Notes: generated by a model from the letters alone, not told the origin. A DNA stretch of 64,000 nucleotides from a bacterium (GCA_963616935.1 CAVEMS010000001.1:33273-97272), one strand, 5' to 3'; shown: positions 4,797-56,250, counted from the stretch's first letter. Translations and numbers: made by a program.

Positions 4797-4886
4797 TCTT
4801 AATTGACGTCATTAAGCGTCTCTTCGGAGGCGCTTTTTATGTCTTTATTTTTCAAACGACTCCTATATATTTATTGCGGGGACAAT

Positions 4887-30616: not shown

Positions 30617-30684
30617 TCTCTTCGATTCTTATTTTGAAGCGGTTTTTGCGGAGATTTTTGGATATTTGAGCAATGAATGGCTCA

Positions 30685-31596: not shown

Positions 31597-31741
31597 ATTG
31601 AATATAAGGATTTCGATATCTCATTTTGCGTCAACGATAATGGTAATCATTCGATATATAGCCAATTATTATGTATTTTATTGCGTTTTAACCGTTCCAT
31701 AGGCGTTAACGAAAACGGAAAGAATAGACAAATGATGAAAG

Positions 31742-31768
31742 AAAAAAACGCCCGACGACAATCGGGCG
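31742..31768 (-). terminator. Rho-independent terminator ending the 42610..31788 operon
   Basis: On the minus strand: CGCCCGAUUGUCGUCGGGCG followed by UUUUUUU, immediately after the stop at 31788. Confidence 0.6.
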
Positions 31769-31787
31769 TGGCGAGAAGGAGTCGTTA

Positions 31788-34115: not shown

Positions 34116-34136
34116 GGCTTTTATCCTTTCTTTTAT

Positions 34137-36116: not shown

Positions 36117-36127
36117 TTTATGTCTCC

Positions 36128-39088: not shown

Positions 39089-39089
39089 A

Positions 39090-39998: not shown

Positions 39999-40001
39999 TC
40001 T

Positions 40002-40892
40002 TTAATCCTCCGATGGTCCGAATCTCTCTAGCAACCGTTTGGTGATTAAGGTCAAAGGAACGGCAATTATGGTAAGAAGGAGCCCGATTGCGCAGATATA
40101 AGGATATTCGGATTCGTTGATACCGGCGTTGATGGTCAAGCTATATAGATGATAGCCGTATGTTTGGACGGCCTCTGGGGCCGTTGTGCCATAAAAAGAG
40201 AAAAGGTTCATCTGATTGGTGAAGATGGAAGCGACGCTTGTGATGGCAAAAGTCGTTATCGTCGGATAAATGCCTGGCAAAACAATATGGATGAATTCTT
40301 GCCAAGCGTTGCATCCGTCGATTTTGGCCGCTTCGATAACGTCGGTTGATAAGCCGCTCATCGCATTGCTATACATCAAGACGTTAGTGCCAAAACTCAC
40401 CAATATGTTATAGAAGATGATCGCCCAGAAACGGGTTTTTGGATCGGAGATTAAGCCTCCGATTGAGTAACCGAAGATTTCCGGCATCGCCGACTCGACG
40501 AAATATTGGTAAATCGTGACCATGACGATGGCCGAAAGGATCGAAGGCATGAAAAGCATGACCTTGAAGAAAGATCCCATCGGCAACTTCTTATAGATGA
40601 AATAAGAGAACAACAAAGCGAATATCGTTCCTATCGAGTAAGTTAATAAGAAATATAGGAAAGACATCCCGAAAGTCGTTAGCAGTGTCGGTTCCGTCAT
40701 CTTTTGGAAGGCGTTCGATAAGGCGTCTATTGACCAAGTCGCCGTCCCGCTTGTCATATCGATCTTTTGGAAGGCGTAGAGAAAGCTTCTAGCATTAACC
40801 CCGATATAGAAGATGGCGAATTGGGCGACGGGGAAAAGCATCATCAGAACATAGAATAAGAAGTTTCCGTCAAATAGCTTCTTCTTTTTCAT
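40002..40892 (-). CDS. Carbohydrate ABC transporter permease (MalF-like)
   Basis: EAA motif (IEAAKIDGCNAWQEFIHIVLP), six TM helices. Confidence 0.85.
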   Translation of the reverse strand: MKKKKLFDGNFLFYVLMMLFPVAQFAIFYIGVNARSFLYAFQKIDMTSGTATWSIDALSNAFQKMTEPTLLTTFGMSFLYFLLTYSIGTIFALLFSYFIYKKLPMGSFFKVMLFMPSILSAIVMVTIYQYFVESAMPEIFGYSIGGLISDPKTRFWAIIFYNILVSFGTNVLMYSNAMSGLSTDVIEAAKIDGCNAWQEFIHIVLPGIYPTITTFAITSVASIFTNQMNLFSFYGTTAPEAVQTYGYHLYSLTINAGINESEYPYICAIGLLLTIIAVPLTLITKRLLERFGPSED

Positions 40893-40927
40893 AATGGTTC
40901 CTGTTGGCCTTCTTATGACTATAAGAA

Positions 40928-42610
40928 TTAATGGTTATAGTGGCTCCACTCGTTTTTATAGTAGGTGTACATGCCAGAGAAATAATCCTCGGCTGAGTAT
41001 CCTTCGTCGGTCAAACCGGTTACGACCCACTGGTTCGTTTTGCCGTTGATAGTCGTTTCATATTGGAAATTCGGATGGAATTTCTTCTGATTGTTGGCGA
41101 AGAAGGAATTATTCGCACAAGGATAGATGATGTCGCTATTCGCCTTTCTCTCGTATAAGGAACGACCATAGTATGTCATTTGATTCAGATCGTTTTCTGT
41201 CATCGTGTAATTGAGGGCTTTCGGAGTGTTCGTAGTGATGGTGTATTCAACCAAAGAGGTGTCGGTGTTACAGAATTTGATGAATTCTTTGACGATGCTC
41301 TTCTTATATTCTTCGACGTTGGCCTTCATGAAGCAGAAAGAATAAAGATGGTCATAAAGGGTCGTTTTCTTGGTTGAATCCGCTTTTTCCTTGGTTGGTT
41401 GCGGAAGAGGCATGAAAGCGAAGCGGCGGTTCTTCATCGAAGCTGATTCGCTCTTGGACGATTCCATTTCCTCGAAAATGCCTTTGGCTTCGTTTTGCCA
41501 CCAGCAGCCATCGCTAAGCATGGCATATTGCGGGGTGCTTTCGTCATAGCCGCCATAAAGGAAATCCCTTTGGGCATCGGTATGCGAATAAGCGGTGGTC
41601 ATTTTCGTCTTGTTGTAATAACTATCGTTTTCGACGATGGTTTTGAGGAATTTGATGCCGTAATATTTTCCGGCCATACGGGAAACTTCATATCCGTTTT
41701 CTTCCGTCAATGTCGTTGGGGCGCTATCTATCACCAATTCGCCGTTTTTGATGGTTGCCAAAGTGTTAACTTCGCCATCGCAAGTGAAGACCTTGCTCAT
41801 TTCTTCTTTGCCTTCGTAATTGGCGGCGAGGGAATTGACCAATAAGTTCAAATAATCGTTTTTGTTTTTGCCGTTCGATAAGAAGGGAACGCAGTCGCTT
41901 TTGGCGATGTAGTTGCATAAGTCGAAGAATTCGTCATAAGTTGTCGGCAATCCGTCGTCGCTAGTTCCCGAAACACCGTCTGGACCGTCGGACTTTTTGA
42001 TGTTCGTTTTGCTGATGAATTTATCGGCTAGGTAAGTCGTTCCGCTTGGGTTCTTCGCAAAATAGAAACCTTTTTTGTCGAATAAATCGACGTTATAGGT
42101 GATTCCGAAATATCCAGAGTAATGCGGCAATGCGTAATAATGTTTTTCGCCGTTCTCTTCGATTCCATAGAAGGATTTTTGCGAATCGTCCATCTTATCG
42201 AGGATCGATTTGTCTTCGCCGTCGAGCTTATCGGTGACGACATCGGTGATATCGGCCAAGATTCCTTCGTTCTTAAGGCTGAAGTAAGACGATTGCTCGG
42301 TGAAGATGACTTCGTCCCTGTTCGTCAATATCTTGTTAGCGGACGCATCGGCGGTGTCCTTATTGTTATTGATATAGATTTGAACGCCTTTCTTGCCTTC
42401 TTCCAAAACGTCGTCTTTATGCGCTTCCTCAAAGCGGTCTTTAATTTTGGATAGCCACTCCGATCCGTATCCTCCGTCATAATTCCTGACGTAAATCTGC
42501 GTCTTTGATGCGTCGATTTTCTCGACATTCGGAGGAGTGGTGGTTTTGCAGCCGACCACGGCAAAGCTCAAAGCGCTTGAGGCTAAGAGCAGAACGTTTT
42601 GTTTTCTCAT
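40928..42610 (-). CDS. Extracellular solute-binding lipoprotein (family-1 sugar ABC binding protein)
   Basis: Lipobox LLLASSALSFAVVGCKT, 560 aa. First gene of the operon, adjacent to the permeases. Confidence 0.75.
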   Translation of the reverse strand: MRKQNVLLLASSALSFAVVGCKTTTPPNVEKIDASKTQIYVRNYDGGYGSEWLSKIKDRFEEAHKDDVLEEGKKGVQIYINNNKDTADASANKILTNRDEVIFTEQSSYFSLKNEGILADITDVVTDKLDGEDKSILDKMDDSQKSFYGIEENGEKHYYALPHYSGYFGITYNVDLFDKKGFYFAKNPSGTTYLADKFISKTNIKKSDGPDGVSGTSDDGLPTTYDEFFDLCNYIAKSDCVPFLSNGKNKNDYLNLLVNSLAANYEGKEEMSKVFTCDGEVNTLATIKNGELVIDSAPTTLTEENGYEVSRMAGKYYGIKFLKTIVENDSYYNKTKMTTAYSHTDAQRDFLYGGYDESTPQYAMLSDGCWWQNEAKGIFEEMESSKSESASMKNRRFAFMPLPQPTKEKADSTKKTTLYDHLYSFCFMKANVEEYKKSIVKEFIKFCNTDTSLVEYTITTNTPKALNYTMTENDLNQMTYYGRSLYERKANSDIIYPCANNSFFANNQKKFHPNFQYETTINGKTNQWVVTGLTDEGYSAEDYFSGMYTYYKNEWSHYNH

Positions 42611-42801: not shown

Positions 42802-43143
42802 ATGCTTTTTTTAATCATTGGAATCGCTTTGTTCGTTGCACAGCCTTTATATCTCTTGTCTTACATAATCACGATGTTGACTTCCTATTCGTCCGTCAAA
42901 CTTGGCATCGGCGCCATACTTTTCTTTGTCGCCGCCGTCTTGACCATCGTCTCGGTTGTTCTTCATTCGATCGTTTCGCTCATCAACAAAACGGTTGAAG
43001 ACGAAGAGGCCGTTGAGAAACGCATCAACGTTTTGAAGGTGTATAAGGAATACAAAGACGAGGACATCATCACCGAAGAGGAGTTCCAGATGAAAAAGAA
43101 CGAAATCTTAGGTCTTTGTGTCAAAAAAGAAGAAAAGAAATAA
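42802..43143 (+). CDS. Small membrane protein with a C-terminal SHOCT-like motif
   Basis: Two TM helices, then DIITEEEFQMKKNEILGL (SHOCT-like). Confidence 0.45.
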   Translation: MLFLIIGIALFVAQPLYLLSYIITMLTSYSSVKLGIGAILFFVAAVLTIVSVVLHSIVSLINKTVEDEEAVEKRINVLKVYKEYKDEDIITEEEFQMKKNEILGLCVKKEEKK

Positions 43144-43165: not shown

Positions 43166-43190
43166 AGGCGGTCGTTTGGCCGCCTTTTTT
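43166..43190 (+). terminator. Rho-independent terminator
   Basis: AGGCGG-TCGTTTGG-CCGCCT followed by TTTTTT. Confidence 0.55.
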
Positions 43191-43388: not shown

Positions 43389-44483
43389 GTGAATAAAAAC
43401 GACAAGAAAAAACATCAGAGTAACAAAGGGTTAATAGACCCCTCCAAAGTCAAGACGTTCATCGTTCATCACGAATGCGAATTGCTCGCTTTTTTACGTG
43501 AGAAGATGCCTAAGCAATCGCAACATAACATTCGCCATATGATCGCCAATCATCAAGTGGCCGTCGGTGGGGCCCCGGTCTCCCTTTTCAAAGCGCCTCT
43601 TTACCCCGAGGACGAAGTCACCGTCACCTGGAACCCGATAAGAAGGAAGGAAAGGAAAGACCTTCCGATTGTCTATGAAGACGACGACATAATCGCTATC
43701 AATAAGCCGAGCGGACTATTAAGCGTGGCCACGGAAAGGGAGAAAGGCAAGACGGCATATCGCCTAGTTAGTGATTACGTCACCCAAAAAGATAGGAACA
43801 ACCGAATCTTCGTCGTCCATCGTTTGGACGAGGACACTTCTGGCGTCCTTATCTTCGCCAAAAGTTACGCGGTGAAGGAAGCCCTTCAATTACATTGGCA
43901 GGAGATTGTCTCCAAACGCGGCTATTATGCGATAGTTGAAGGGGAGGATATCCCTGAACAAGGACGACTCGAGGATTACCTTACAATCGATGATACATAT
44001 ACGGTCCACGTGACGAGGAATAAGAAATTAGGGAAGCTTGCGATCACGAATTATCGCAAAATCGCCTGCAAAAACGGCTTATCCCTCCTCGATGTCGATA
44101 TCGAAACCGGAAGAAAGAACCAAATAAGGGCACAACTCGGGCATATTGGATATTATGTAATCGGAGATGACCGTTATGGCGAGCCGTCCGATCCATTAAA
44201 AAGACTTGGGTTACACGCCTATCAATTGACTTTTGTCAATCCGATGAGCAAAAAGAGCTACGACCTCAAGGCCGATATCCCAGAATCTTTCAAAAGACTC
44301 TTTTGGCGAACGCGAAAGCAAGAAGCCGAAGAGAAGCTCAAGAAAGAGGAAAAACGAGCGATGAAATCGTTCGATAAGGCCTATAACAGTGAGAAACCGC
44401 TGAGAAAGAGAAAAAATAGAAGCGATAAGGGAGGGAAGAGAGCATGGCAGAAGAAAAAAGCAAAACAAAACACCCGCTACTAA
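43389..44483 (+). CDS. RluA-family 23S rRNA pseudouridine synthase with N-terminal S4-like domain and basic C-terminal tail
   Basis: Catalytic motif HRLDEDTSGVLIFAK. The start is a GTG at 43389 with no good RBS and is uncertain. Confidence 0.7.
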   Translation: MNKNDKKKHQSNKGLIDPSKVKTFIVHHECELLAFLREKMPKQSQHNIRHMIANHQVAVGGAPVSLFKAPLYPEDEVTVTWNPIRRKERKDLPIVYEDDDIIAINKPSGLLSVATEREKGKTAYRLVSDYVTQKDRNNRIFVVHRLDEDTSGVLIFAKSYAVKEALQLHWQEIVSKRGYYAIVEGEDIPEQGRLEDYLTIDDTYTVHVTRNKKLGKLAITNYRKIACKNGLSLLDVDIETGRKNQIRAQLGHIGYYVIGDDRYGEPSDPLKRLGLHAYQLTFVNPMSKKSYDLKADIPESFKRLFWRTRKQEAEEKLKKEEKRAMKSFDKAYNSEKPLRKRKNRSDKGGKRAWQKKKAKQNTRY

Positions 44484-44491
44484 AAGAATTC

Positions 44492-46063
44492 ATGAAGAAA
44501 TTGGCCGAGAATTTCTTGGCCGTTTTGCCGATTTTCGCGATTGTTACCGTGTTATTCTGTATCCCAGGCATCGTCAATAATGAAACGTCGAAATGGGAAA
44601 GCTATGTCGCTTTTGTGATAAGCGCCGTCTTTGTCGGGCTCGGATTAAGTCTCTTCACGATGGGCGTCGATGAGTCGATGTCGAGAATCGGCCAAGCGGT
44701 CGGCGAGTCGCTATTCAAGAAAAAGAATATCTTCTTCGTCGTCGTGATGACTTTCATGATTGGCGTTTTGGTAACCGTGGCCGAACCTGATTTGAGCGTC
44801 ATGGCTAGTCAAATCGGATGGGAGAAGATCACGCTCATAGCATTTGTTGGCATCGGCGTCGGTTTGTTCGTCGTCTTTGGGGTTCTTCGCATTTTGTTTG
44901 GGAAAGACCTTCGCATAATGTTCATTTGCTTCTATGCGATCGTCTTCATGCTCGCAAGCATCGTCGATAAGAGGTTCTTGCCAATCGCCTTCGACTCGGG
45001 AGGCGTTACGACGGGTCCTGTCACCGTTCCGTTTATCCTTGCTTTTGGCGCCGGTTTGGCCGCTTCAAAAGCCAATAACGGCAGAAGCGGCGAAGACGCC
45101 TTCGGCTTGACGGCCCTTGCTTCTGTAGGGCCGATTATCGCCGTCATGGTCATGTCTTTGTTCATGGACGTCGACAACATGGTTTATACCCTCGATATCA
45201 GCCCGCTAGAAAGTTTGGGAGGCTGGGGCGATTTCGCGCCGGTTTTCTTCTCTCTTATTGGCGAGTATCTGCTTGAAGAACTTAAAAACGTCGCGATTGC
45301 GATCGCTCCAATTGCCGCCTTCTTCTTCATCTACAATCTCTTCGTTCTCAAATATCGTTGGCGGCAAACGCTCAAGATATACGTCAATTTGCTATATGCA
45401 TCATTCGGTTTAGTCCTCTTTTTAACGGCCGTTAATGTCGGATTCTTGCCAACGGCTCAGGAAATTGGCAGAGGCCTTGGTGATAATCAAAGCCTTACTT
45501 GGCTAGCGATTCTTATCGGCGGTTTATTTGGCATTTTCGGCGTCATTGCCGAACCTGCCGTTCACGTCTTGGTTCACCAAGTCGAAAGCGTTTCCGAAGG
45601 CACGATATCTTCGAAATCTGTTCTCGTCGTTTTGGCGTTAGCTGTCGGAGGCGGCGTTGCTTTGGCGGTGACTAGGGCCTATTTCGGATTCACGATTCTT
45701 TATTATATGATCCCTGGCTACATAATCGCTTTAGGGCTATCTTTCCTGGTTCCTAAGATATTTACTTCCATCGCCTTTGATTCGGGCGGTGTCGCTTCTG
45801 GCCCAATGGCTTCGACTTTCGTTATGCCGTTTGTCGTCGGATTCACGGTCGCCACCCATGGTGAAAGCGCGGTTTATGAAAATGCATTCGGATGCGTGGC
45901 GATGATCGCCTTGATGCCTTTGATCGTCGTTCAAATGATGGGTTTAACGGCCAAGATGAAGACGGGAATCTCAAATTTCCGCACCCGCAAGGCCTTTATG
46001 GGTGAGGACGATCCGGTGATCATCAATTTTTTGGAGGAGAAGCATGAAGTGGAATCCCTTTAA
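44492..46063 (+). CDS. DUF1538-family integral membrane protein (internal duplication)
   Basis: Two copies of the FDSGGV(T/A)(T/S)GP(V/M) motif within polytopic halves. ATG at 44492 avoids overlap with rluA. Confidence 0.65.
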   Translation: MKKLAENFLAVLPIFAIVTVLFCIPGIVNNETSKWESYVAFVISAVFVGLGLSLFTMGVDESMSRIGQAVGESLFKKKNIFFVVVMTFMIGVLVTVAEPDLSVMASQIGWEKITLIAFVGIGVGLFVVFGVLRILFGKDLRIMFICFYAIVFMLASIVDKRFLPIAFDSGGVTTGPVTVPFILAFGAGLAASKANNGRSGEDAFGLTALASVGPIIAVMVMSLFMDVDNMVYTLDISPLESLGGWGDFAPVFFSLIGEYLLEELKNVAIAIAPIAAFFFIYNLFVLKYRWRQTLKIYVNLLYASFGLVLFLTAVNVGFLPTAQEIGRGLGDNQSLTWLAILIGGLFGIFGVIAEPAVHVLVHQVESVSEGTISSKSVLVVLALAVGGGVALAVTRAYFGFTILYYMIPGYIIALGLSFLVPKIFTSIAFDSGGVASGPMASTFVMPFVVGFTVATHGESAVYENAFGCVAMIALMPLIVVQMMGLTAKMKTGISNFRTRKAFMGEDDPVIINFLEEKHEVESL

Positions 46064-46853
46064 AAAGAAGACCCTTAAGAGGGAAAGCGTCAATCATGAT
46101 GCCGGTAGCGCAAGTTACGTGCCTCTTTATTTGCTGCTTACGATCGTGAACGACGGACAGGCGAGTAGCATTGTCAAAATCGCCAGGAATTATGGCGCTT
46201 CGGCAAGCTACGTTTGCCATGGTCATGGCACGGCGAGCAACGATTTCTATGAAGTCTTCGGTCTCACCCATAGCAATAAGCAAGTCGTTTTGACGCCAAT
46301 CAGATCCGATATGTACCCCAACATCAGGGAAGCGACTTTGAACCGCTTTTCGATCAACGATGCCTCAAAAGGCGTCGCCGCGCTTCTTCCCATATCGAGC
46401 GTCATCGGGAAGAACGCCTATAGATTGCTAGCCGACGAAAGAGTCGGATTGGACGCGGAAGGAGCGAAGAAACTTATGGAAAACGTACCAATGAAAGGCG
46501 ATTTCGAACTTGTGGTCGCTATCGTCAACGATAGTTACACCGACTTAGTCATGGATGCCGCCAAATCGGCCGGGGCCAGAGGAGGAACGATCCTTAATGC
46601 CAGAGGCACCGGAAACAAGGACATTGAGAACTTCTTTGGCGTCGTGATAACCCCGGAAAAGCAAATCGTCTTGATCATCGTTCCGAAGAAAATCCGCGAT
46701 GATGTTCTTTCCGCCATCTATAAGAATGTCGGGCTCAATTCCAAAGGGCAAGGCATCGTCTTCTCTTTGCCGGCTAGCGACGTCCTAGGCGTCGCCGAAG
46801 AACGGCCCGCCGAGGCGAATGAAGAATCAAACGCCGCAAAGGAAAGCAAGTAA
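46044..46853 (+). CDS. Tandem PII-like (nitrogen regulatory protein P-II family) protein
   Basis: Two PII-like modules (…SIVKIARNYGASASYVCHGHGTA… and …LVMDAAKSAGARGGTILNARGTGNKD…). Overlaps the 3' end of the DUF1538 gene. Confidence 0.6.
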   Translation: MKWNPFKKKTLKRESVNHDAGSASYVPLYLLLTIVNDGQASSIVKIARNYGASASYVCHGHGTASNDFYEVFGLTHSNKQVVLTPIRSDMYPNIREATLNRFSINDASKGVAALLPISSVIGKNAYRLLADERVGLDAEGAKKLMENVPMKGDFELVVAIVNDSYTDLVMDAAKSAGARGGTILNARGTGNKDIENFFGVVITPEKQIVLIIVPKKIRDDVLSAIYKNVGLNSKGQGIVFSLPASDVLGVAEERPAEANEESNAAKESK

Positions 46854-46872
46854 CGTATAGGAAACCACTCAG

Positions 46873-49800
46873 ATGAGCGAAACGGGTGGGGGCATATTCG
46901 AGAAAAAGGGGAAGAAAGCTTTTTCGTTCCCTCTTTTCCTTAGAGAGCATTTCCCTTTCCTTTTCGAAATCCGCTCACTTTTCTATTTCTTTTGGCTTCT
47001 CTTTTTCTTAGGCATCTTCTGGATGGCCTATGGGCTATTCACCAATAGTTTCACTCAATTCTATCCATGGACGGATTACTTCGGACAGTACGTCACGATG
47101 ACGTATTATTTCCATGATACTTGGAGGAATTTCTTCAAAACCGGCTATTTTGAGCTATATTCTCCATCGACATATCTTGGTTCTGACAACATCGGATCAA
47201 ATTCGTATTACGGCCTTTTCGATCCGTTTTTGTTCGTTTGCTACATTTTCCCTCGTTCGTGGATTCCTCAGACTTTCGCTATAGCGACGATATTCAAAGG
47301 CATCGCAAGCGGCTTTTCGATGCGGGCATACCTCAAGTATATGGGGGTTAAGGAATGGAGCGCGAGGATTGGGGCGATTGCTTTCGCGTTCAATGGCTAT
47401 GTCAATTTCATGGTTGGATTTCCGAGTTTCGTTTCGATGGCTTTCACCGTTCCTTTGGTGCTACTAGGAATCGAGCAGGTTCTTAAGGAAAAGAAGATCA
47501 CTTGGCTTGTTATTGGATTGGCACTATTAGGATTCATCTCCTTCTTCTTCCTTGTCGTCGTTTGCATATTCGGGGTGTTATACGCTTTATTCAGGTATTT
47601 TCAGACTCTCAAAACGAGGAAAGGGAAAGACCATTTTCTGGTCATCGTTTATGGCGTCGCCGCTTTTGCGCTAGGGATTTTGATGAGCGCTTGGACTCTT
47701 TTTCCAAGCATCCGGGAAAGCGCGTTGTCTGGAAGGACAACCTCCATTGCGAAAGCGTACCTCGATAGTTTGACATCCGCTTTCAAAGGGATGGACGTCG
47801 GAACGGTATTCGGCCTCTTGTTTGAGATGGTTGGGCGCCATCCCGTGCGGGAAATGCAGGCGATAATTGGATTTTTCTATCCGACGATCGGCTATCGCTA
47901 TAGCGCGCTCGCGGGCGGTGGATACGATGCTTGGAATGCCTCTTTGTTTTGCTATACCCCCTTCGCTTTGCTTCTCTTTATCGCCTTGGTGAATTCGTGT
48001 CGAGAGAAGAAGATATCCCATATCATCGCTTGGCTTCTTATTTGCTATTTGTTATTTACGAATTTCGCCTATTATTTCTTCTACGCTTTTACGGGCGATG
48101 GCTATGGAAGGTGGTATATCGTCCTGATACCAGTGATCATCTATTATGGCGCTAAGGAACTTGACCGTCTTAAGGATGAGCCTAGATGGGTGATTGGATT
48201 AGGTGAAGGAATCGCCATATTTTTGACTGTTTTGACTTGGGTTCTGTGCGTGACATTGGTTAGGAATGTCTCTTTCGACGACAGGATGGACGGCTATTGG
48301 CAAACCAGTTACAAGGTGCCATATGAATATGTTTATGACGGCGTCACCCATTCTTTCATCTGGGTTATTTACCTTCAAATTGGGCTATTGGTGATTGAAG
48401 CGATCATTTTCTTAGTTTGGAAGAACAAGAAGATAATCAAGAAAATCGCCCTTGGAAGCGTTATGGCGGAGATAATCTTATGGGGGAACGTCTCCTTTAT
48501 CGATAACAGCCCATGGCGAGTCGACGATAAAACGAATTCCGCCGGCCAAGTCGTTTCCTATGGTTGGAATGGTGGCAACGCCTATCGCGAAACGGCGACT
48601 GCGGCGATGGAGAAGATTAATGCCGAAGATTCGTCCTATTTCCGCACCTTCTATGAAGGGAATCCGGAAAACAACGTTGCTATGGCCTTTGGGAGCAATG
48701 GCACGAGCACCTTCCATTCTTTATTCAATTACGACGTCAATCAGCTTTCTTTGTATCTATACGCCAATAGACCGACGTATGTGAATAAGGAATACGCTTA
48801 CGGGGAGGATTATTATAGCCACTCCTGGAGCGCCTTCTATGGCAATAAACGTTATGGCGCCGATTATGCCCTTGGAATGAAGTACTATGCCGTTCTTCAA
48901 CAAGGATATGGATCGCTCGAAGGCGTCGCCGACAATGTGCCATGGAACCATACGCTCGTCTATGGCGATAAGAGCACGAAATTAAGATTCTATCGCAACG
49001 ATTCCTATGTTTTTGGGCATGCTGTAGACAAGATCTATTCACAAGGCGCGACGAACGCACTAACCGGATACGACTCCTTTTATGGCGGGAACGGCAAGCG
49101 AGAGGCGATTAGAAACGACCAAGTTCTTCTTGAAGGGGCGATCATATCGGATGAGGAGAAGGAGAGATTCGAAAAGGAAACGGAAGGAAAGGGGATTTCC
49201 TTTGATGCCGTTCCTTACTCTTCTTCCTTATATCAAGAAGTCGAATATGACATGACTTGTTACACCACCGACTATGAATGGTGGGGGCCGTTTAATGAGG
49301 AAACCGGAGTTAGAGAAGGGCCTGGCTATTTCGTGAATGACGAAAGCAAGACGAAAAGGAAAATCTCGCTTGGAGGCAAATACATTCCCGATATGGAGAT
49401 CGTCGCTTTGACGCCATCCGACGGATCGACTTATTTCAACGACGAATATAATGGGGCTTATTTTGCTATAAATTATGACTTCTCTTCGTCCCTTAAGAAC
49501 AACAAGAAAACGAGGATTTACTTCATCGGCGACAAGGAAAACGATGACGGCACGATTAGTGAAAACGTCTTGCTCTCCTATGATTATGAGACGATGGTCA
49601 CTTATGCGAAGCGGAAGATGATTGATGGCGGAGACGTCTTCGGCTTCTATCCGGAAGGCAAGGTCAAATACATTTGCTTTAATGCCAAGCCAAGCGATTT
49701 CTCTTCTCTCGATGCCGGTAAAGCGGTCGCCACTTTGCCTTATTCCCTTAGTGTTTATATGACCCCACGAAGCGAAATCGAAAAGATCGAAGGCAAATAC

Positions 49801-50166
49801 ATGAATGATGGGGAATACGCTTTAAAAGATGTGGTTTACGATAAGAACAGATTCACTTTCTCGACTTCTTTCTCGGCTTCCAAAGTCGTGACAACGTCGT
49901 TAGGCTATGACGCCGGATGGAAGATAACGGCCAAAAAAGGCGAAGAAACAATCTCCTTGGATACGTATAAAATCAATGGTGGATTCGTTGGTTTCGTGGC
50001 ACCAGAAGGGGAAGTTACTTACCTTCTTCAATATGAGACGCCATATCTAAAAGAAGGGGCTTTTGCTGCTGCTTTTGCGATTTTCGCATTCGGATCGATA
50101 CAAATCGGATCCTTCTTATATCTATATTTCAAAAAGAAGAAAGAAAAGGAATCGTCTATTTCTTGA
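46873..50166 (+). CDS. YfhO-family membrane protein (putative GT-C glycosyltransferase, lipoteichoic-acid/glycolipid glycosylation)
   Basis: 1097 aa. N-terminal polytopic block, a large extracytoplasmic domain, and a C-terminal TM helix with a KKKK tail, which is the YfhO-like topology. Confidence 0.6.
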   Translation: MSETGGGIFEKKGKKAFSFPLFLREHFPFLFEIRSLFYFFWLLFFLGIFWMAYGLFTNSFTQFYPWTDYFGQYVTMTYYFHDTWRNFFKTGYFELYSPSTYLGSDNIGSNSYYGLFDPFLFVCYIFPRSWIPQTFAIATIFKGIASGFSMRAYLKYMGVKEWSARIGAIAFAFNGYVNFMVGFPSFVSMAFTVPLVLLGIEQVLKEKKITWLVIGLALLGFISFFFLVVVCIFGVLYALFRYFQTLKTRKGKDHFLVIVYGVAAFALGILMSAWTLFPSIRESALSGRTTSIAKAYLDSLTSAFKGMDVGTVFGLLFEMVGRHPVREMQAIIGFFYPTIGYRYSALAGGGYDAWNASLFCYTPFALLLFIALVNSCREKKISHIIAWLLICYLLFTNFAYYFFYAFTGDGYGRWYIVLIPVIIYYGAKELDRLKDEPRWVIGLGEGIAIFLTVLTWVLCVTLVRNVSFDDRMDGYWQTSYKVPYEYVYDGVTHSFIWVIYLQIGLLVIEAIIFLVWKNKKIIKKIALGSVMAEIILWGNVSFIDNSPWRVDDKTNSAGQVVSYGWNGGNAYRETATAAMEKINAEDSSYFRTFYEGNPENNVAMAFGSNGTSTFHSLFNYDVNQLSLYLYANRPTYVNKEYAYGEDYYSHSWSAFYGNKRYGADYALGMKYYAVLQQGYGSLEGVADNVPWNHTLVYGDKSTKLRFYRNDSYVFGHAVDKIYSQGATNALTGYDSFYGGNGKREAIRNDQVLLEGAIISDEEKERFEKETEGKGISFDAVPYSSSLYQEVEYDMTCYTTDYEWWGPFNEETGVREGPGYFVNDESKTKRKISLGGKYIPDMEIVALTPSDGSTYFNDEYNGAYFAINYDFSSSLKNNKKTRIYFIGDKENDDGTISENVLLSYDYETMVTYAKRKMIDGGDVFGFYPEGKVKYICFNAKPSDFSSLDAGKAVATLPYSLSVYMTPRSEIEKIEGKYMNDGEYALKDVVYDKNRFTFSTSFSASKVVTTSLGYDAGWKITAKKGEETISLDTYKINGGFVGFVAPEGEVTYLLQYETPYLKEGAFAAAFAIFAFGSIQIGSFLYLYFKKKKEKESSIS

Positions 50167-51013
50167 AGTTCTTGAGATAGAAATCGTAGACTTCGTTTTT
50201 CGGTAATGAAAGCTCTTTGGCGGTGGCCATTATCGCATCTTTCGATTTCATCGTTTTGAGTTTCGCTTTTAACGACTCGAGGATGGATGAGTCATCTTTT
50301 TGTATTTCTTTTTGCTTATTTCCTTCGACGACCAAAACCATTTCGCCGATTAGCGTATCTTCGTTAAGGGCGGCTGCTTCGGATAATGTTCCGCGGATGA
50401 ATTCCTCATGTTTTTTGGTGAGTTCGCGTCCTATCGATATCTTTCTGTCGCCACCGAGGATCGCCATCATGTCGTTAAGCGTTCTTTTGATGCGGTGCGG
50501 GGCTTCGTAAAAGATGATCGTGTCCTTGAAATTCTTTAGCGATTCGAGTTCCTTTTTCCTTAGGCTTTCCTTGCTATCCAAAAAGCCATAGAAATAGAAG
50601 TGGCTTGTGTCTAATCCGGAGGCGGTTAAGGCCATGATGGCGGCGTTAGGGCCGTTGATTACGCTGACTTTTATGTCATTATCCAAGCATTTCTTGGCTA
50701 ATCTGGCTCCTGGGTCGCTGATTGTCGGGTATCCGGCGTCGCTTAGATAGCCGACTTTTTTGCCTTCTTTTAGCAAGGCGATTATCTTGTCGCTTGCTTC
50801 CTCTTCGTTATGTTCATGGCACGATATGAGCGGTTTTTTGATGTCGAAAAGCATCAAAAGCTTGCCGGTGTTCCTTGTATCTTCGCAAGCGATGTAATCC
50901 ATTTCGGAGATGGTTTCTTTGGCTCTAGCGGAGAATTCGCCGAGGTTCCCGATGGGGCTTGCTATAAGATAGAGAAGAGGCGAAGGGCCGCTAAAATTCA
51001 ATTCCCTTTTCAT
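50156..51013 (-). CDS. rsmI: 16S rRNA (cytidine1402-2'-O)-methyltransferase
   Basis: YLIASPIGNLGEFSARAKETISEMDYIACEDTRNTGKLL, the tetrapyrrole-methylase fold of RsmI. Confidence 0.85.
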   Translation of the reverse strand: MKRELNFSGPSPLLYLIASPIGNLGEFSARAKETISEMDYIACEDTRNTGKLLMLFDIKKPLISCHEHNEEEASDKIIALLKEGKKVGYLSDAGYPTISDPGARLAKKCLDNDIKVSVINGPNAAIMALTASGLDTSHFYFYGFLDSKESLRKKELESLKNFKDTIIFYEAPHRIKRTLNDMMAILGGDRKISIGRELTKKHEEFIRGTLSEAAALNEDTLIGEMVLVVEGNKQKEIQKDDSSILESLKAKLKTMKSKDAIMATAKELSLPKNEVYDFYLKNFKK

Positions 51014-51927
51014 CTTTGCCTTGGCTTTTTGTATTGCGGGTTGTTGTTTCGTTGATTCTGTTCGTCTTTTTTAACCGTTTCTTTCGTCTTCTCGCCATGG
51101 AGTTTCCTTTCGAGTTCGTCTAGGGAAAGGACGATGGTCTCGGTTTCCGATGATAAACGAACGGAACGCGAGAGGATATTGAAACTATCGACTTTGTAGG
51201 AGCCTTCCTTCAAGAAAAGGATGGTTCCGACTTTCGGGAATTTCTTTCTTTCTTCCGTGTAGAGGTCGTCTTCATAGGCCAAGCAGCAAAGGAGTTTTCC
51301 GCAAGCGCCGCTTAGCTTCGGTATATTGAGGGATAGCATTTGGTTTTTGGCTCTTGAGATGCTTATCCCGTCGAAGGAATTCAAAAAGGTGCTGCAGCAT
51401 AGCACGAGGCCGCATGGTCCGATGCCGCCTATTGATTTGGCTTTGTCGCGAGGGGCGATTTGGCGGAGTTCTATGCGGCAATGCAATTTCGGAGCCAAGC
51501 ATTTAAGGAGCTCGCGGAAATCGACGCGGTTATCGGAAGTATAGGTGATGGTGCATTTCATCCCGTCGAGCGAGAACCTCGCTTCGAGAAGTCTCATCGG
51601 AAGACCGAGTCTAGCGACTTCCTCTTCCGTTATCTCTAAGGCTACTTTGGCGTCTTTGAGCCCCATCTCATAATCGCGCTCATCGTCTTTCGAGGCATGG
51701 CGGATGACGGGCGATAAGGCCAAATTGTTCTTATATTCGTCGGTGCTTTTTGCCAAAGCACTCACGATGGCGATTTCGAGTCCGCTTAAAGACTCGACGA
51801 CGACTTTCTCGCCGATGCGATAATCATTCTCGTTCGTGCCAAAGAAATAGTTCTTCGCCCCGCCGGGAAAATGAACGGCGAGGAAAAAGCGGTATTGTTG
51901 TTCTATGCGATCTTCTTCGTCGATCAT
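51010..51927 (-). CDS. ricT: PSP1-domain protein RicT (stage 0 sporulation protein YaaT homologue)
   Basis: PSP1 domain with Cys-rich C-terminus (GPCGLVLCCSTFL...GACGKLLCCLAYE). Conserved position downstream of holB. Confidence 0.8.
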   Translation of the reverse strand: MIDEEDRIEQQYRFFLAVHFPGGAKNYFFGTNENDYRIGEKVVVESLSGLEIAIVSALAKSTDEYKNNLALSPVIRHASKDDERDYEMGLKDAKVALEITEEEVARLGLPMRLLEARFSLDGMKCTITYTSDNRVDFRELLKCLAPKLHCRIELRQIAPRDKAKSIGGIGPCGLVLCCSTFLNSFDGISISRAKNQMLSLNIPKLSGACGKLLCCLAYEDDLYTEERKKFPKVGTILFLKEGSYKVDSFNILSRSVRLSSETETIVLSLDELERKLHGEKTKETVKKDEQNQRNNNPQYKKPRQR

Positions 51928-52907
51928 AAGCCGTTCTCCTTCGATATATAGTTGATTACGTGTTCCAATAAAATGCCTGCGGAAATGTTCAAATCCAATA
52001 GATTCCGCACCTTCATGATTTCTAGCAGGCTTTTGCTCAAAGCGGGCAAATCTAGCAAAGGCTTCATAATCTTAACATAACTCTCTAATAAGAAAGGCGC
52101 ATTTTCTTTGTGGGATATGGTTTCTTTGAAGAATACGCAAAGCATGTCGAAGAACATCTTTGCTCTCTTTTTGTCGCTTAATGCCGGGATGATATCCCTT
52201 TCGGAAACGAGATAAAGCGAATCCTTTCCAAGAGGCACTGCATCGACGAAGGAAAGAAGGGCCGCCTTCATATCGAGATAGTCGTCGCTAGAGACGAAAG
52301 AAGGTAATGCGGCGGAATTATTGATGAAAAAGGAAGCGAGTTCCGCATCCTCTTTCTTGATTCCATCTTGAAGCGCAAGCGAGACGATGTCTTTCTTTGG
52401 CGTAAGCAATAGCCTTATGGTTTCGCAACGACTAACGATCGTCGGTAATACTTTCGCAATGTTTTCGGTGGTCAGGATTGCGTGGACGTAGGAAGGGGGT
52501 TCCTCGAGGAATTTGAGAAGCGAATTGACCGCTTCGACGGTCATGTTCTCAACGCCATTAATGATGTAGACGCAGTCGCTTTTCTCTTCCAATGACGTTT
52601 TTGAAAAGGAGGATACCAGATCCTCGACTTCTTCTTTTTTTATCGTTCCTTCCTCTTCTCCGATGATCTTAAAACCATTGAAGGTTCTATGTTCTATCCT
52701 TTGACAATAACGGCATTCCTCGTCGGCCAAAGGCGAAGGGTTGTCGCATATCAGCGTTTTGGCTAAGAATATAGCCGTCTCTAATAACGGCGTCCCTTTT
52801 TCGCCGCTAAGAAGATAGGCGTGCGAAATTCTATTCGATTTCATCGCGTTCGAAAACGTCTTATAGACCAATGGCTGATAATTGCTTAGGTATTCGGAAA
52901 ATTTCAT
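51924..52907 (-). CDS. holB: DNA polymerase III subunit delta'
   Basis: AAA+ clamp-loader fold (HAYLLSGEKGTPLLETAIFLAK, Zn module CRYC). Synteny tmk-holB. Confidence 0.8.
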   Translation of the reverse strand: MKFSEYLSNYQPLVYKTFSNAMKSNRISHAYLLSGEKGTPLLETAIFLAKTLICDNPSPLADEECRYCQRIEHRTFNGFKIIGEEEGTIKKEEVEDLVSSFSKTSLEEKSDCVYIINGVENMTVEAVNSLLKFLEEPPSYVHAILTTENIAKVLPTIVSRCETIRLLLTPKKDIVSLALQDGIKKEDAELASFFINNSAALPSFVSSDDYLDMKAALLSFVDAVPLGKDSLYLVSERDIIPALSDKKRAKMFFDMLCVFFKETISHKENAPFLLESYVKIMKPLLDLPALSKSLLEIMKVRNLLDLNISAGILLEHVINYISKENGL

Positions 52908-53527
52908 CGCGTTTTAAGCCGCTCTTCTATCGCGCTATAGACGTCTTGGAAGACGCTATCCTTGTCTTTTGAGGCGTCGATCACCACAAAACGCTGTTCA
53001 AAGCGTTTGGCAAGCATCAAAAATCCTTCGCGCACTTTCTTATGGAAGGAAAGTTTCTCGACGTCGAGCCTATTGACTTCGCGGCTAGAGTTAGCGGCGA
53101 TCCTTTCGAGCCCCTTTTCCGGATCGAGATCGAAAAAGAAGGTCAAATCCGGTTCCAATCCTTCGGTGGCGAATAGATTCATTTCGAGAACCTTGTCGAT
53201 TCCGATCCCTCTTGCGTGGCCTTGGTAGGCCAAGGAAGAATCGAGGAAGCGGTCACAGAGGACGATTTTTCCCTCTTTCACGCTAGGAAGGATTTTTTCG
53301 ACGATGTGTTGTCTTCTCGAAGCGGCGTACAAAAGGGCTTCCGTCCTTTCATCCATCTCGGTGTTCTTCTTATCGAGGATGATGTTCCTTATCTCTTCGG
53401 AAATCGGGGTTCCGCCTGGTTCCCTCGTCAAGACTATTTGATAGCCCTCGCTCTCGAGCTTTTCTACGACTTTCTTAATGGCGGTGCTTTTTCCAGCCCC
53501 TTCTCCGCCTTCAAACGTTATGAACAT
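52904..53527 (-). CDS. tmk: Thymidylate kinase
   Basis: MFITFEGGEGAGKST P-loop, LID region, 207 aa. Confidence 0.9.
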   Translation of the reverse strand: MFITFEGGEGAGKSTAIKKVVEKLESEGYQIVLTREPGGTPISEEIRNIILDKKNTEMDERTEALLYAASRRQHIVEKILPSVKEGKIVLCDRFLDSSLAYQGHARGIGIDKVLEMNLFATEGLEPDLTFFFDLDPEKGLERIAANSSREVNRLDVEKLSFHKKVREGFLMLAKRFEQRFVVIDASKDKDSVFQDVYSAIEERLKTR

Positions 53528-53529
53528 GG

Positions 53530-54126
53530 TTATATCCTCTTTCTTCCTTCGAAAGCTTTGCTTAGCGTAAGCGAATCGGCATAATCTAGCGATGCTCCCA
53601 TCGGTAGCCCGTATCCGAGCCTGGTAACGACGATTTCCTTCTTTTCGAGGAGTTTGGCGATGAATAACGCGGTTGTTTCGCCTTCCAATGTCGGGTTAGT
53701 GGCAATTACGACTTCTTTCACTTTGTTTTCGTCGATTCTTTTTAGGAGAGTGCCAAAAGAAAGATCGTCGACGCTGATGCCTTTGGAGGCGCTTAATAGT
53801 CCGCCTAAGATATGGTAGATGCCATTAAATGAGCCCATTTTCTCTATCGCCAAGGCGTCTTTTGGGCTTGCGACCACGCACAAATAGGCATGATCTCTAT
53901 TCTCATCGCGGCAGATTTCGCAAGTTTCCTCTTCCGTGTATAGTCCGCATTCGGGGCACTTATGGATTTTCTCTTCGCTGTTTTTGATCGCTTCGATGAA
54001 GGATAATTTATCTTCTTTTGGCATATTCAAAACGGCGTATGCCATTCTCTCGGCGGTACGTGGTCCGACGCCTGGAAGCTTTCCAAAAGCATCGGTCAAT
54101 TGGACGATGGTTTTAAGTTCCTTCAT
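53530..54126 (-). CDS. recR: Recombination protein RecR
   Basis: C4 zinc finger (CPECGLYTEEETCEIC) plus Toprim domain. Confidence 0.9.
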   Translation of the reverse strand: MKELKTIVQLTDAFGKLPGVGPRTAERMAYAVLNMPKEDKLSFIEAIKNSEEKIHKCPECGLYTEEETCEICRDENRDHAYLCVVASPKDALAIEKMGSFNGIYHILGGLLSASKGISVDDLSFGTLLKRIDENKVKEVVIATNPTLEGETTALFIAKLLEKKEIVVTRLGYGLPMGASLDYADSLTLSKAFEGRKRI

Positions 54127-54431
54127 TAGAAGGGGAAGGCTCCTTTTCTGCCGGTGACTTTCTCACTCATCGCCTCTTCTTCTTTGGCGATTTGCTCCAA
54201 GGCTTCGTTAATGGCCATGGCGATTGTGTCTTGAATCATGTCGGCGTTATCGGCGCTTAAGGCATCGGGTTCGATCTTGATCTCTTTGACCTTTTTGCTT
54301 CCGAGGACGCAAACTTCGATGATGCCGGCTTTTTTGATGACGAATTCCTTCGCTTCCAAGGCGGCGTGCGCTTTTTCGAGTTCGCGCTGCATGCGTTGCG
54401 CTTGCATGAGCATTTGCTGCATTTGATTCAT
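54126..54431 (-). CDS. ybaB: Nucleoid-associated protein YbaB/EbfC
   Basis: MNQMQQMLMQAQRMQ... The 101 aa length and position between dnaX and recR fit YbaB. Confidence 0.85.
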   Translation of the reverse strand: MNQMQQMLMQAQRMQRELEKAHAALEAKEFVIKKAGIIEVCVLGSKKVKEIKIEPDALSADNADMIQDTIAMAINEALEQIAKEEEAMSEKVTGRKGAFPF

Positions 54432-54441
54432 ATTTTTCTCC

Positions 54442-56250
54442 TTATTTTGGAAGATTCAAAACGATGGTGGATTTGGCTGGCAGCTGATTTAGCCGCATCA
54501 AGTCATAATAACGGTTTTGGACGTCGAGTTTCTCGTTATTGTCCAAGGCATATACGAAGACCTTTCTTCCTAAGAAGGTTTCGATTAATTCCTCTAAGGG
54601 CTCTTGATTGGCAACTAGATTCGCTTTTTCGGCTAGATTGGTGTGCTTATACACAAGCACCAAAGCCTCTTTCGATAAGCAATAAGGGGCGCCACTAGAT
54701 AGCAAGGTCGCCAAAGCGCCGACCTTTTCGTCCATTTTTAGTGGGGTGAGTTCAGGCCAGCGGTCGACGAGCGATTTGCGCTCGGTCTTGTTTGCGAGAA
54801 CCATGATTTTGAGAATCTCATCCTGAGGGATATTGAACCGCTCCCCGCTTGTGGCGATTTGCGGCCGCTTGATTTTCGAAAGGTCGATGGAACTTGCGGG
54901 ATTGCTCATATTGGATGAGGCTTGTTTCGCATCGTCCCAAAGCCAACCGGGCACAGGGATGCCGGAGGCTTTCTGTGAAGTCGGTTCCTTGCTTTCGTTA
55001 GCGACTGTTTTTGGGCTTTCTTTCAGAATTGGAGTCTCAACTTTTGGCGCCGCAACCTTCTTTTCGTTTTCAAATAGCGGTTTTACCACTTCTTTTTGGG
55101 GTTGTTGAATCGGCTCAACTTTTTGGGTTGGTTGGGTTTTTGCAGGGATTTTTTGATTTATTGCAGGCGAATCGTCATCTTCTGAGGCGAGTTTCAATAG
55201 CGATAATTCAAACAACGAACGGATGTCCGACACCATTTTGAAATTGTTTTGCGTTTCCAAAAGGACTTGGATGGTTTTGTTTATCGAAACCACTGGATAG
55301 GAGGGGAGAAGCCCTGTGGCATCTTCCTCTTTTAAAACGCCAAGCAAATCCGCCCTCTTTGTTTTCGCATATACCAATAGGTCTTTCAAAATGGAAATCA
55401 AATCGGCCAAGAACCTGCGGATATCCAGTCCTTTCGAGACATAAAGATCGGTCTTGGCGATGACGCTAGCGACGTCGCCTTCTCGAAGGCATTTCAATAG
55501 GTTGATCTTTTCCTCTTTGCTAGCGAGTCCATAAACCGATAAGACGTCGTTCTCGTCGAGCTTGTCTCCGCTATAGGCGAGGACTTGATCGAGGATCGAC
55601 AAAGCGTCTCTCATTCCGCCGTCGGCCAAATTGATGATGGCTTTGACGCCGGCATCGTCATATTGAACGTTTTCCTTTTCCAATATTTCTTTGAGCTTTC
55701 CGCCCATTTCCTCTTCGCTAAGCTTGGAGAAATCGAAACGTTGGCAACGAGAAAGGATCGTCGGCAAGACTTTGAATGGCTCGGTGGTGCATAAGATGAA
55801 AATGACGTTCTCGGGCGGTTCCTCGATTGTTTTCAACAAGGCGTTGAAAGCGCCGGTCGACATCATATGGACTTCGTCGATTATGTAGACTTTGTATTTT
55901 CCCTTGATCGGGGAATATTGGACGCCGTCGATTAATTCGCGGACCTGATCGACACCGTTATTGCTTGCGGCGTCTATTTCGATGACGTCAGGATGGGTTC
56001 CCTCGGCGATCGCCAAGCAATTCGAGCAATGGCCGCATTGATGGCCGAGTCCTTCCTCGCAATCGAGCGCTTTGGCGAATAGCCTAGCCATCGATGTTTT
56101 ACCGGTTCCGCGTGGCCCGGCGAAAAGATAGGCATGGGCCATTTTGTCCTTCGCTAACGCGTTTTTGAGGGTTCGGACGATCGCTTTTTGCCCAGCGACT
56201 TCTTCAAAAGTCTGAGGGCGGTAAGTTAGATAAAGAGCTTTATAAGACAT
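54442..56250 (-). CDS. dnaX: DNA polymerase III subunits gamma/tau
   Basis: AAA+ region with a C4 zinc module (AYLFAGPRGTGKTS...CGHCSNC). Promoter-like TATAAT and an AAAGGTG RBS lie immediately upstream, on the minus strand at 56261..56277. Confidence 0.9.
   Translation of the reverse strand: MSYKALYLTYRPQTFEEVAGQKAIVRTLKNALAKDKMAHAYLFAGPRGTGKTSMARLFAKALDCEEGLGHQCGHCSNCLAIAEGTHPDVIEIDAASNNGVDQVRELIDGVQYSPIKGKYKVYIIDEVHMMSTGAFNALLKTIEEPPENVIFILCTTEPFKVLPTILSRCQRFDFSKLSEEEMGGKLKEILEKENVQYDDAGVKAIINLADGGMRDALSILDQVLAYSGDKLDENDVLSVYGLASKEEKINLLKCLREGDVASVIAKTDLYVSKGLDIRRFLADLISILKDLLVYAKTKRADLLGVLKEEDATGLLPSYPVVSINKTIQVLLETQNNFKMVSDIRSLFELSLLKLASEDDDSPAINQKIPAKTQPTQKVEPIQQPQKEVVKPLFENEKKVAAPKVETPILKESPKTVANESKEPTSQKASGIPVPGWLWDDAKQASSNMSNPASSIDLSKIKRPQIATSGERFNIPQDEILKIMVLANKTERKSLVDRWPELTPLKMDEKVGALATLLSSGAPYCLSKEALVLVYKHTNLAEKANLVANQEPLEELIETFLGRKVFVYALDNNEKLDVQNRYYDLMRLNQLPAKSTIVLNLPK

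Follow-up and report, generated by a model that had tools for sequence, protein, structure and literature searches.

A DUF1538 membrane protein and its tandem PII partner as a candidate PII-gated ion transporter, with a YfhO-family glycosyltransferase gene as neighbour, in uncultured Bacilli

INTRODUCTION

Few signal transducers are as widespread as the PII proteins, of whose transporter targets only a small number are understood (AmtB, SbtA and some ATP-binding cassette (ABC) systems). In GlnK–AmtB and SbtB–SbtA, a gene for a PII-fold protein is coupled genetically to the gene of the transporter on which the protein acts. Here we describe a related arrangement in a stretch of 64,000 nt of bacterial DNA (GCA_963616935.1 CAVEMS010000001.1:33273-97272), referred to throughout as the window, in which a gene for a membrane protein of the DUF1538 family is followed by a gene for a tandem PII protein and by a gene for a YfhO-family membrane protein.

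The only experimental work on the DUF1538 family concerns UmpAB of Halomonas zhaodongensis, a heterodimer of two DUF1538 proteins which alone conferred salt and alkali tolerance on Escherichia coli KNabc and showed pH-dependent Na+(Li+,K+)/H+ antiport; a PII partner is not mentioned in that report (PMC5484666). Two adjacent paralogous PII genes whose products act together are represented in methanogens by NifI1 and NifI2, which keep the canonical ATP/2-oxoglutarate residues, assemble 2:1 within one trimer and have nitrogenase as their target (PDB 9p1x; bioRxiv 10.1101/2025.09.09.675011). PII-like proteins with a short T-loop are known in Firmicutes as the c-di-AMP-binding PstA/DarA (PMC4316997), the genes of which are not linked to transporters. 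The YfhO, GtlB and PgfM1 proteins are glycosyltransferases (GT) of the GT-C type (PMC5836110, PMC8035078), and characterised yfhO genes are co-transcribed with the GT-A gene csbB and not with transporter genes (PMC5836110).

The original prediction for this locus, made from the sequence alone, described the three genes in series and suggested that metabolite-gated transport might feed envelope modification. Our reading, to which we assign a probability of roughly one half, is that the locus encodes a PII-gated ion transporter, probably for cation/H+, with YfhO as an independent neighbour.

RESULTS

Conservation of the DUF1538–PII pair

The pair and its recognizable parts are as follows, in window coordinates.

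44444-46063, + strand: DUF1538-family membrane transporter, 539 aa (PF07556, E 1e-112, two stretches)
44780-44791, + strand: AEPD motif of repeat 1, at the break of a discontinuous helix; E114 is invariant in the family
44990-45019, + strand: FDSGGVTTGP motif, second broken helix of repeat 1; D184 is invariant
45548-45559, + strand: AEPA motif, the repeat 2 counterpart of AEPD
45776-45805, + strand: FDSGGVASGP motif, the repeat 2 counterpart of FDSGGVTTGP
46044-46853, + strand: tandem PII protein, 269 aa (PF00543, E 9e-11, C-terminal domain)
46116-46448, + strand: N-type PII domain, degenerate (internal homology, AlphaFold2 fold and residue mapping)
46494-46811, + strand: C-type PII domain with a conserved sensor core of AGARGGT, RGTGN, PEK and KGQGIxF (PF00543 and invariant columns)
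46602-46658, + strand: short T-loop of the C-type domain, RGTGNKDIENFFGVVITPE, 6 residues fewer than in GlnK1

The two reading frames share exactly 20 nt, as had been predicted. The start of the DUF1538 gene had been placed at 44492, which is an internal ATG without a Shine–Dalgarno sequence; all three gene calls on identical contigs use 44444. GGAGG precedes both this ATG and the ATG of the PII gene at 46044, and translational coupling of the two genes is likely.

The pairing was surveyed in 81 non-redundant loci, 71 of which could be assessed for DUF1538 adjacency and 74 for YfhO. By script, DUF1538 lies directly upstream of the PII gene or genes in 69/71 loci, the two exceptions (L072 and L074) being artefacts of partial matches, so that the adjacency holds in all 71, and overlaps of 4-20 nt are common. 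In all five plasmid or chromid records entered from the DUF1538 side (Vescimonas, Peptoclostridium, Paraclostridium, Methylocystis and Chelativorans), a P-II gene lies next to DUF1538, each time with unrelated flanks. The same adjacency, again among unrelated flanks, is present in three of three Xanthobacter-type chromosomal loci; Oscillospiraceae and Peptostreptococcales carry a cassette of fused DUF1538 and tandem PII, also in unrelated surroundings. A metagenome scan with a split alphaproteobacterial subunit yielded 2 loci only, its patterns being too specific, and three contigs were added. Clustering of the flanking open reading frames (ORFs) in 19 loci of differing context gave no third recurrent gene.

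The two families also occur within one polypeptide. A search of 1.84 billion representatives returned 2,929 DUF1538 clusters at 50% identity, and among the best 150 of these, DUF1538 is joined to an N-type and a C-type PII domain in P0361 (709 aa) and P0377 (720 aa), and to one PII domain in P0298, P0381 and P0355. The fusion junction of P0377 (L095, 4001-6163) reads smoothly, and the P0355 cluster is present on 5 contigs from 3 sources. Such tightness, seen in adjacency, overlaps and fusions, is what would be expected of a PII protein acting on its transporter, as in GlnK–AmtB and SbtB–SbtA. Constant association combined with variable order and fusion state would be the signature of a physical complex. 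DUF1538 and PII thus form a tight module across bacterial phyla, there is good genomic support for a PII protein that serves the DUF1538 transporter specifically, and the recurrence of the pairing claimed in the original prediction was upheld. Its description as functionally uncharacterised has to be qualified for the transporter family, since the split DUF1538 pair UmpAB is a Na+(Li+,K+)/H+ antiporter (PMC5484666). A literature search mostly outside subscription journals found no publication linking DUF1538 to PII.

Some of the loci are unusual in their own right. At L094 (2774-5306) the order is inverted, a 219-aa tandem PII gene lying upstream of the DUF1538 gene with an 8-nt overlap; the DUF1538 protein there has a third, degenerate PII-like domain at its C-terminus, and the locus is set among toxin–antitoxin genes (YafQ/RelB, PhdYeFM/PIN). 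A Bacilli-type DUF1538–PII locus was also found in five bins (L035, L049, L068, L031 and L079) with titles such as 'Roseburia hominis', 'Bacteroidaceae bacterium', 'uncultured Prevotella sp.' and 'Lachnospiraceae bacterium', which are probably mislabelled or contaminated. In three of them (L035, L049 and L031) the rluA-DUF1538-PII-yfhO-rsmI block is complete and is 43-81% identical to the window; L079 has rluA-DUF1538-PII and L068 the DUF1538–PII pair alone.

The DUF1538 protein

The membrane protein scores 374.8 bits against PF07556 (gathering cut-off 22.6). Homology between its two halves (27% identity, E 4e-20) and the location of both FDSGGVxxGP motifs confirm the predicted internal duplication. 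Both halves were aligned with split alphaproteobacterial DUF1538 subunits and the two halves of a protein from Peptoclostridium; every aligned half keeps E114, P115, R149, Y164, D184 and several glycines, in both repeat types and across phyla. By its motifs AEPD and TTG the N-terminal half belongs to the A type, and the C-terminal half, with EPAV and A[S/T]GP, belongs to the B type. These match the split alphaproteobacterial A and B subunits respectively, and the window gene is therefore an A–B fusion.

The AlphaFold2 model of the protein (predicted local distance difference test score, pLDDT, 89.6; predicted template modelling score, pTM, 0.88) has seven helices per repeat, two of which are broken exactly at the AEP and DSGG motifs. 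A structural search with this model found no solved relative of the fold. In the model, the placing of invariant acidic residues at helix breaks would fit cation or proton coupling.

UmpAB belongs to the same Pfam family, each half of the window protein aligns from end to end with the UmpA and UmpB models (NF041627/NF041628), and the differentiation of the halves into A and B types mirrors the split A+B pair. The window protein differs in being one fused chain of 539 aa and not two subunits, and its scores of 160.5 and 118.6 bits lie well below the equivalog cut-offs of 490 and 500.

The tandem PII protein

The Pfam P-II match is confined to residues 155-250 (E 9e-11, 42.5 bits against a gathering threshold of 25), yet residues 25-135 and 151-256 are homologous (27% identity, E 3e-12), and AlphaFold2, with an alignment of 82 sequences, gives both halves the beta-alpha-beta-loop-beta-alpha-beta fold (pLDDT 77, pTM 0.72). 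The top single-domain PDB matches of the model in Foldseek are GlnK/GlnB, with template modelling scores of 0.6-0.7 and 20-30% identity. Two fused PII domains are thus present as had been proposed, the C-terminal one recognized by Pfam and the N-terminal one by homology and fold.

Whether these domains carry the T-loop and nucleotide-binding residues of a PII sensor, as the original prediction presupposed, has a divided answer. In the numbering of Methanocaldococcus jannaschii GlnK1, the C-type domain keeps its short T-loop and, in the cleft and around it, G24, G27, T29, G35, G37, P57, G87, G89 and F92; several other residues are replaced (Q39 by K192, K58 by E205 with an invariant K206 next to it, K90 by I238, R101 by G249 and R103 by A251). 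The N-type domain has lost most of the cleft positions (G27A, T29Y, G37A and G87S relative to GlnK1). The canonical T-loop of GlnB/GlnK has about 19 residues (positions 37-55), a length that the window protein does not reach, and the loop is 6 residues shorter than that of GlnK in all the DUF1538-linked PII proteins examined. The C-type features just described are shared by the DUF1538-linked PII proteins of Bacilli, Oscillospiraceae, Peptostreptococcales and Alphaproteobacteria, which have in common AGARGGT, RGxG, the short loop, PEK, PGxGxxF and V.G.

Against the PDB, the C-type profile matches NifI1 best (9p1x_H, E 1e-8), followed by GlnK/GlnB (E 1e-6 to 1e-3). SbtB is reached at E ~0.5 only, which is no profile match; there is no sbtA, the partner here being DUF1538. 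No PstA/DarA chain was found at E<=1, and Pfam gives P-II only, so that the likeness to PstA/DarA is confined to the PII-like fold, the short T-loop and the occurrence in Firmicutes. NifI1 likewise has a short T-loop, and NifI1/NifI2 also share with our loci the use of two paralogous PII units. They differ in their target, no nif genes being present in the window or the examined loci, and in keeping the canonical ligand residues; moreover, a covalent 1:1 tandem cannot form a single trimer, as NifI does in its 2:1 assembly. The DUF1538-linked proteins thus form a PII subfamily of their own, in which the pocket is conserved although non-canonical and for which the annotation 'P-II family nitrogen regulator' is probably misleading.

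Origin of the tandem

Among the loci retrieved with the PII alignment, three architectures were counted.

Fused tandem PII: 52 loci, plus 3 inferred from ORF length
Two separate adjacent PII genes 3' of a fused DUF1538 gene: 27 loci, plus L072 and L074
Two split DUF1538 genes (A and B) with one C-type PII gene: 6 alphaproteobacterial loci

Where there are two genes, the first is of N type (~127-158 aa) and the second of C type (~106-144 aa), and the N-type domain of the window protein is orthologous to the first gene of the 27 separate pairs. A rough neighbour-joining tree sets all DUF1538-linked PII domains apart from GlnK1 and NifI1; within it the C-types join the alphaproteobacterial single PIIs and the Bacilli N-types join the Oscillospiraceae N-type. 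It follows from this grouping that the duplication into N- and C-types is older than the fusion (or fission). The tandem protein is thus the fused form of two adjacent paralogous PII genes, and the tandem or two-gene architecture would argue for PII hetero-assembly.

The YfhO gene and the transcription unit

The genes and signals that surround the pair are given below.

43166-43185, + strand: hairpin with an 8-bp stem (6 GC pairs) followed by a T-run, resembling an intrinsic terminator; it closes the upstream SHOCT gene and marks the 5' limit of the unit
43389-44483, + strand: rluA-family pseudouridine synthase (PF00849, E 7e-29; TIGR00005, E 4e-49)
46873-50166, + strand: YfhO-family GT-C-type membrane glycosyltransferase, 1097 aa (PF09586, E 8e-40)
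50156-51013, - strand: rsmI, 16S rRNA C1402 2'-O-methyltransferase (TIGR00096, E 7e-80), convergent with yfhO

The rluA-family gene is the first of the apparent operon and overlaps the start of the DUF1538 gene by 40 nt. The yfhO start lies 19 nt beyond the stop codon of the PII gene, and the ends of yfhO and rsmI overlap by 11 nt. Between rluA and the end of yfhO there is no terminator-like site with a comparable stem, and co-transcription of yfhO with the DUF1538–PII module is likely given this and the 19-nt gap; the same holds for rluA. Window positions 43389-50166 (rluA-DUF1538-PII-yfhO) are thus likely to be one transcription unit of mixed function. An Rfam scan of the whole window gave no family match. 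The window is identical to contigs of two NCBI assemblies of metagenome-assembled genomes (MAGs), and its nearest relatives are all uncultured Bacilli-type MAGs.

The predicted YfhO assignment was borne out by PF09586 (137.4 bits, gathering 28.5). Its start is ambiguous, one gene call using ATG 46873 (1097 aa), preceded only by a weak AGGAAA, and two calls the equivalent of 47023 (1047 aa). By hydropathy, residues 28-544 are rich in transmembrane (TM) segments, 545-1062 (~520 aa) are hydrophilic and 1063-1085 form a last TM segment, a plan of many N-terminal TMs, large extracytoplasmic region and terminal TM that is shared with the YfhO/GtlB/PgfM1 enzymes. The PgfM1 equivalog model scores 16.7 bits. 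The YfhO of Bacillus subtilis has 861 aa, the window protein being about 240 aa longer. In the window it is not paired with a csbB-like GT-A gene (CsbB/GtlA-like, making the C55-P-sugar donor): no Glycos_transf_2 (GT2) or GtrA hit was found among ORFs of >=130 aa in the 64-kb window, although such genes may sit elsewhere in the genome.

YfhO lies next to DUF1538–PII in 51 of the 74 assessable loci, is displaced by 2-4 kb in 2 and is absent from 21. All adjacent cases fall inside one block, rluA-DUF1538-PII-yfhO-<rsmI, of uncultured Bacilli, and YfhO is never beside the pair outside it; in 8 loci within the block there is no YfhO and rsmI stands directly 3' of PII. In the clade with two PII genes the gap between PII and yfhO is 130-630 nt, or yfhO is 2-4 kb away. 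The rluA gene is upstream of the pair in every YfhO-adjacent locus with an assessable flank, and rsmI, which is the edge of a housekeeping cluster (dnaX-ybaB-recR-tmk-holB-PSP1-rsmI) anchoring the region, keeps its position in 45+ loci, so that both are conserved within the block at least as often as YfhO. Since rluA and rsmI serve RNA modification, which is unrelated to transport, this synteny is no evidence of shared function. The adjacency of YfhO is ordinary lineage synteny and gives no support to a pathway, and YfhO stands outside the conserved module; of the gene-neighbourhood expectations in the original prediction, the DUF1538–PII association holds across genomes, whereas YfhO adjacency is limited to a single lineage and the link to envelope glycosylation was not sustained.

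Other observations in the window

Upstream of the unit, a small protein with two TM segments (42802-43143, + strand) has a C-terminal SHOCT-like segment (E 3e-4, under the Pfam cut-off); its start varies between gene callers (89 or 113 aa), and the region's strongest terminator-like hairpin is directly 3' of it. The RluA-family protein has a Lys/Arg-rich C-terminal tail of ~50 residues (window 44330-44483) outside its Pfam domain, and the sequence coding for this tail includes the 40 nt that overlap the DUF1538 start. None of the three proteins (DUF1538, PII and YfhO) had a PADLOC match as an anti-phage defence component.

Downstream, 50156-56250 (- strand) holds the conserved Firmicutes cluster dnaX-ybaB-recR-tmk-holB-PSP1(yaaT)-rsmI. 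In B. subtilis, the gene of the PII-like c-di-AMP receptor, darA (yaaQ), follows tmk in this cluster; the window has a 4-nt overlap between tmk and holB, and a darA-like gene would not fit there. At 13888-17378 (+ strand) an Orn/Lys/Arg decarboxylase (OKR_DC_1, E 3e-65) and an agmatine deiminase (PAD_porph, E 3e-102) are encoded as a single fused chain of 875 aa, with a CN_hydrolase gene (N-carbamoylputrescine-amidase-like, 16479-17378) directly 3' of the fusion gene; this looks like a complete route from arginine to putrescine with the first two steps in one polypeptide. A cluster at 27656-42610 resembles a glycan-utilization locus, with two large DUF4838 proteins (986 and 659 aa), surface proteins with Big_2/Big_13 domains, an AraC-type regulator and the genes of an ABC sugar transporter (substrate-binding protein and two permeases). 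ORFs of 540-760 aa without a Pfam match lie at 1043-2962, 3132-4796, 4803-6431 and 22380-24671.

DISCUSSION

Our working hypothesis is that the functional unit of the locus is the middle pair, a DUF1538 transporter together with its own cytoplasmic PII-type sensor. The DUF1538 protein would be a secondary ion transporter built as an A–B fusion of two homologous seven-helix repeats, each with two broken helices bearing the invariant Glu (AEP) and Asp (DSGG). The sensor would be a covalent fusion of two old paralogous PII units, of which the N-type is degenerate and the C-type conserved and provided with a short T-loop. We suggest that the PII protein docks through its T-loops on the cytoplasmic face of the transporter and opens or blocks it according to a small ligand in the C-type cleft, probably a molecule of the adenine-nucleotide type bound in a non-canonical way. 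Such gating would parallel that of GlnK–AmtB and SbtB–SbtA, with which the locus shares the genetic coupling of PII-fold and transporter genes, a conserved T-loop and the expected docking in the cytoplasm. It differs from both in that the transporter family is unrelated and its fold has no solved relative, in the T-loop shortened by 6 residues and the replaced K58, K90, R101 and R103, and in having two paralogous PII units or a covalent tandem where those systems have a homotrimer from one gene. We regard PII gating of the DUF1538 transporter, which the genomic pattern favours, as likely. By analogy with UmpAB, the substrate may be a monovalent cation exchanged for H+, an assignment that we make only tentatively. 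Transport by UmpAB alone in E. coli KNabc indicates that the transporter functions without PII, and this fits a regulatory and not an essential role for the PII protein. The YfhO protein would be an extracytoplasmic GT-C glycosyltransferase that acts independently, its gene lying in the same operon within a single lineage of uncultured Bacilli.

Several points weigh against this proposal. The surveyed loci were retrieved by patterns derived from the PII gene, and the sample is therefore biased towards relatives of the window; the triple fusions P0361 and P0377 are singletons and may be frameshift artefacts of overlapping genes. The wide shortfall from the UmpA and UmpB cut-offs means that the UmpAB substrate cannot be transferred with confidence, and with K58, K90, R101 and R103 missing from the C-type domain, binding of adenine nucleotides is not assured. 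The analysis demonstrates the anatomy of the genes, the two duplications, the folds, the pairing, the fusions and how YfhO is distributed; docking, gating, ligand and substrate are all deduced. Finally, YfhO adjacency persists down to ~40% PII identity, with the genes co-directional and the gaps short, and some co-regulation or functional tie between YfhO and the DUF1538–PII module may exist.

This last point bears on a quite different explanation, in which the three genes form one pathway and a PII-gated DUF1538 protein feeds, or exports for, envelope glycosylation by YfhO, for instance as a flippase of lipid-linked sugar or by supplying a counter-ion. The closeness of yfhO to PII without an intervening terminator, the frequency of the adjacency (51/74 loci) and the formal vacancy of the flippase role, no GtrA/GtcA-type gene being present in the window, would all suit it. 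We nevertheless consider a common pathway very improbable, because the adjacency is limited to one synteny block in which the unrelated rluA and rsmI are equally conserved, 8 loci of that block lack YfhO, and the two-gene PII clade has yfhO at a distance; YfhO is also absent in other contexts, namely at least 13 loci of Bacilli and Clostridia, the 5 plasmid or chromid and 6 alphaproteobacterial loci, L094 and L095, and characterised yfhO genes pair with csbB and not with transporters (PMC5836110).

Alternatively, the design may be the same PII-gated one and the substrate another, such as an anion, bicarbonate, an organic acid or an amino acid, with the PII protein reporting the matching metabolic state. 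The match to UmpA and UmpB is at the level of the family only, the other PII-gated transporters carry ammonium or bicarbonate, and the flanks elsewhere include an AsnC regulator with an aminotransferase, ClC, amino-acid, GntP and EamA permeases and SulP, without a consistent theme. However, the sole experimental datum for the family is cation/H+ antiport (PMC5484666), the membrane-embedded invariant Glu and Asp at the helix breaks suggest cation or proton binding, and no riboswitch or recurrent metabolic neighbour points to a different substrate: an Rfam scan of the window and 21 loci of differing context found no riboswitch upstream of the DUF1538–PII pair, the glycine, TPP (thiamine pyrophosphate) and T-box elements in these loci belonging to other genes. 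A substrate of this other kind seems to us somewhat unlikely. It could also be argued that transport is not gated at all, DUF1538 being a transceptor, a sensor or anchor in the membrane, which sequesters PII so as to let it control other targets in the cytoplasm, or the PII domains being structural and not sensing. The loss of canonical ligand side chains and the degenerate N-type domain would agree with this; PII proteins commonly have several targets and are commonly sequestered at the membrane by AmtB, and a structural role would be in keeping with the covalent fusions to the transporter. But the glycines of the C-type cleft, the T-loop and the B-loop motifs vary little or not at all, unlike a purely structural appendage, a PII domain permanently tethered in a fusion cannot shuttle to other targets, and UmpAB transports without any PII (PMC5484666), so that we hold the absence of gating to be improbable. 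A PII-gated transporter, probably of cations against H+, remains the reading that we prefer.

The locus may represent an undescribed class of PII-gated ion transporter, with an unsolved fold, a second heteromeric PII that is fixed here as a covalent tandem and in some organisms joined to the transporter, and a pocket sensing something other than ATP, ADP or 2-oxoglutarate, although we rate this combination at somewhat less than even odds. The two-gene and tandem forms provide a second candidate for a heteromeric PII and call into question the view that NifI1,2 is the only one. For annotation the lesson is a negative one, namely that adjacency to YfhO should not be read as a pathway. For the PII family, the DUF1538–PII module, ranging from gut Bacilli to Alphaproteobacteria with about 2,900 clusters at 50% identity, offers a compact system of two or three genes, and sometimes of one chain, in which to find a new PII ligand and mode of gating, and its natural fusions are ready-made constructs for structural work.

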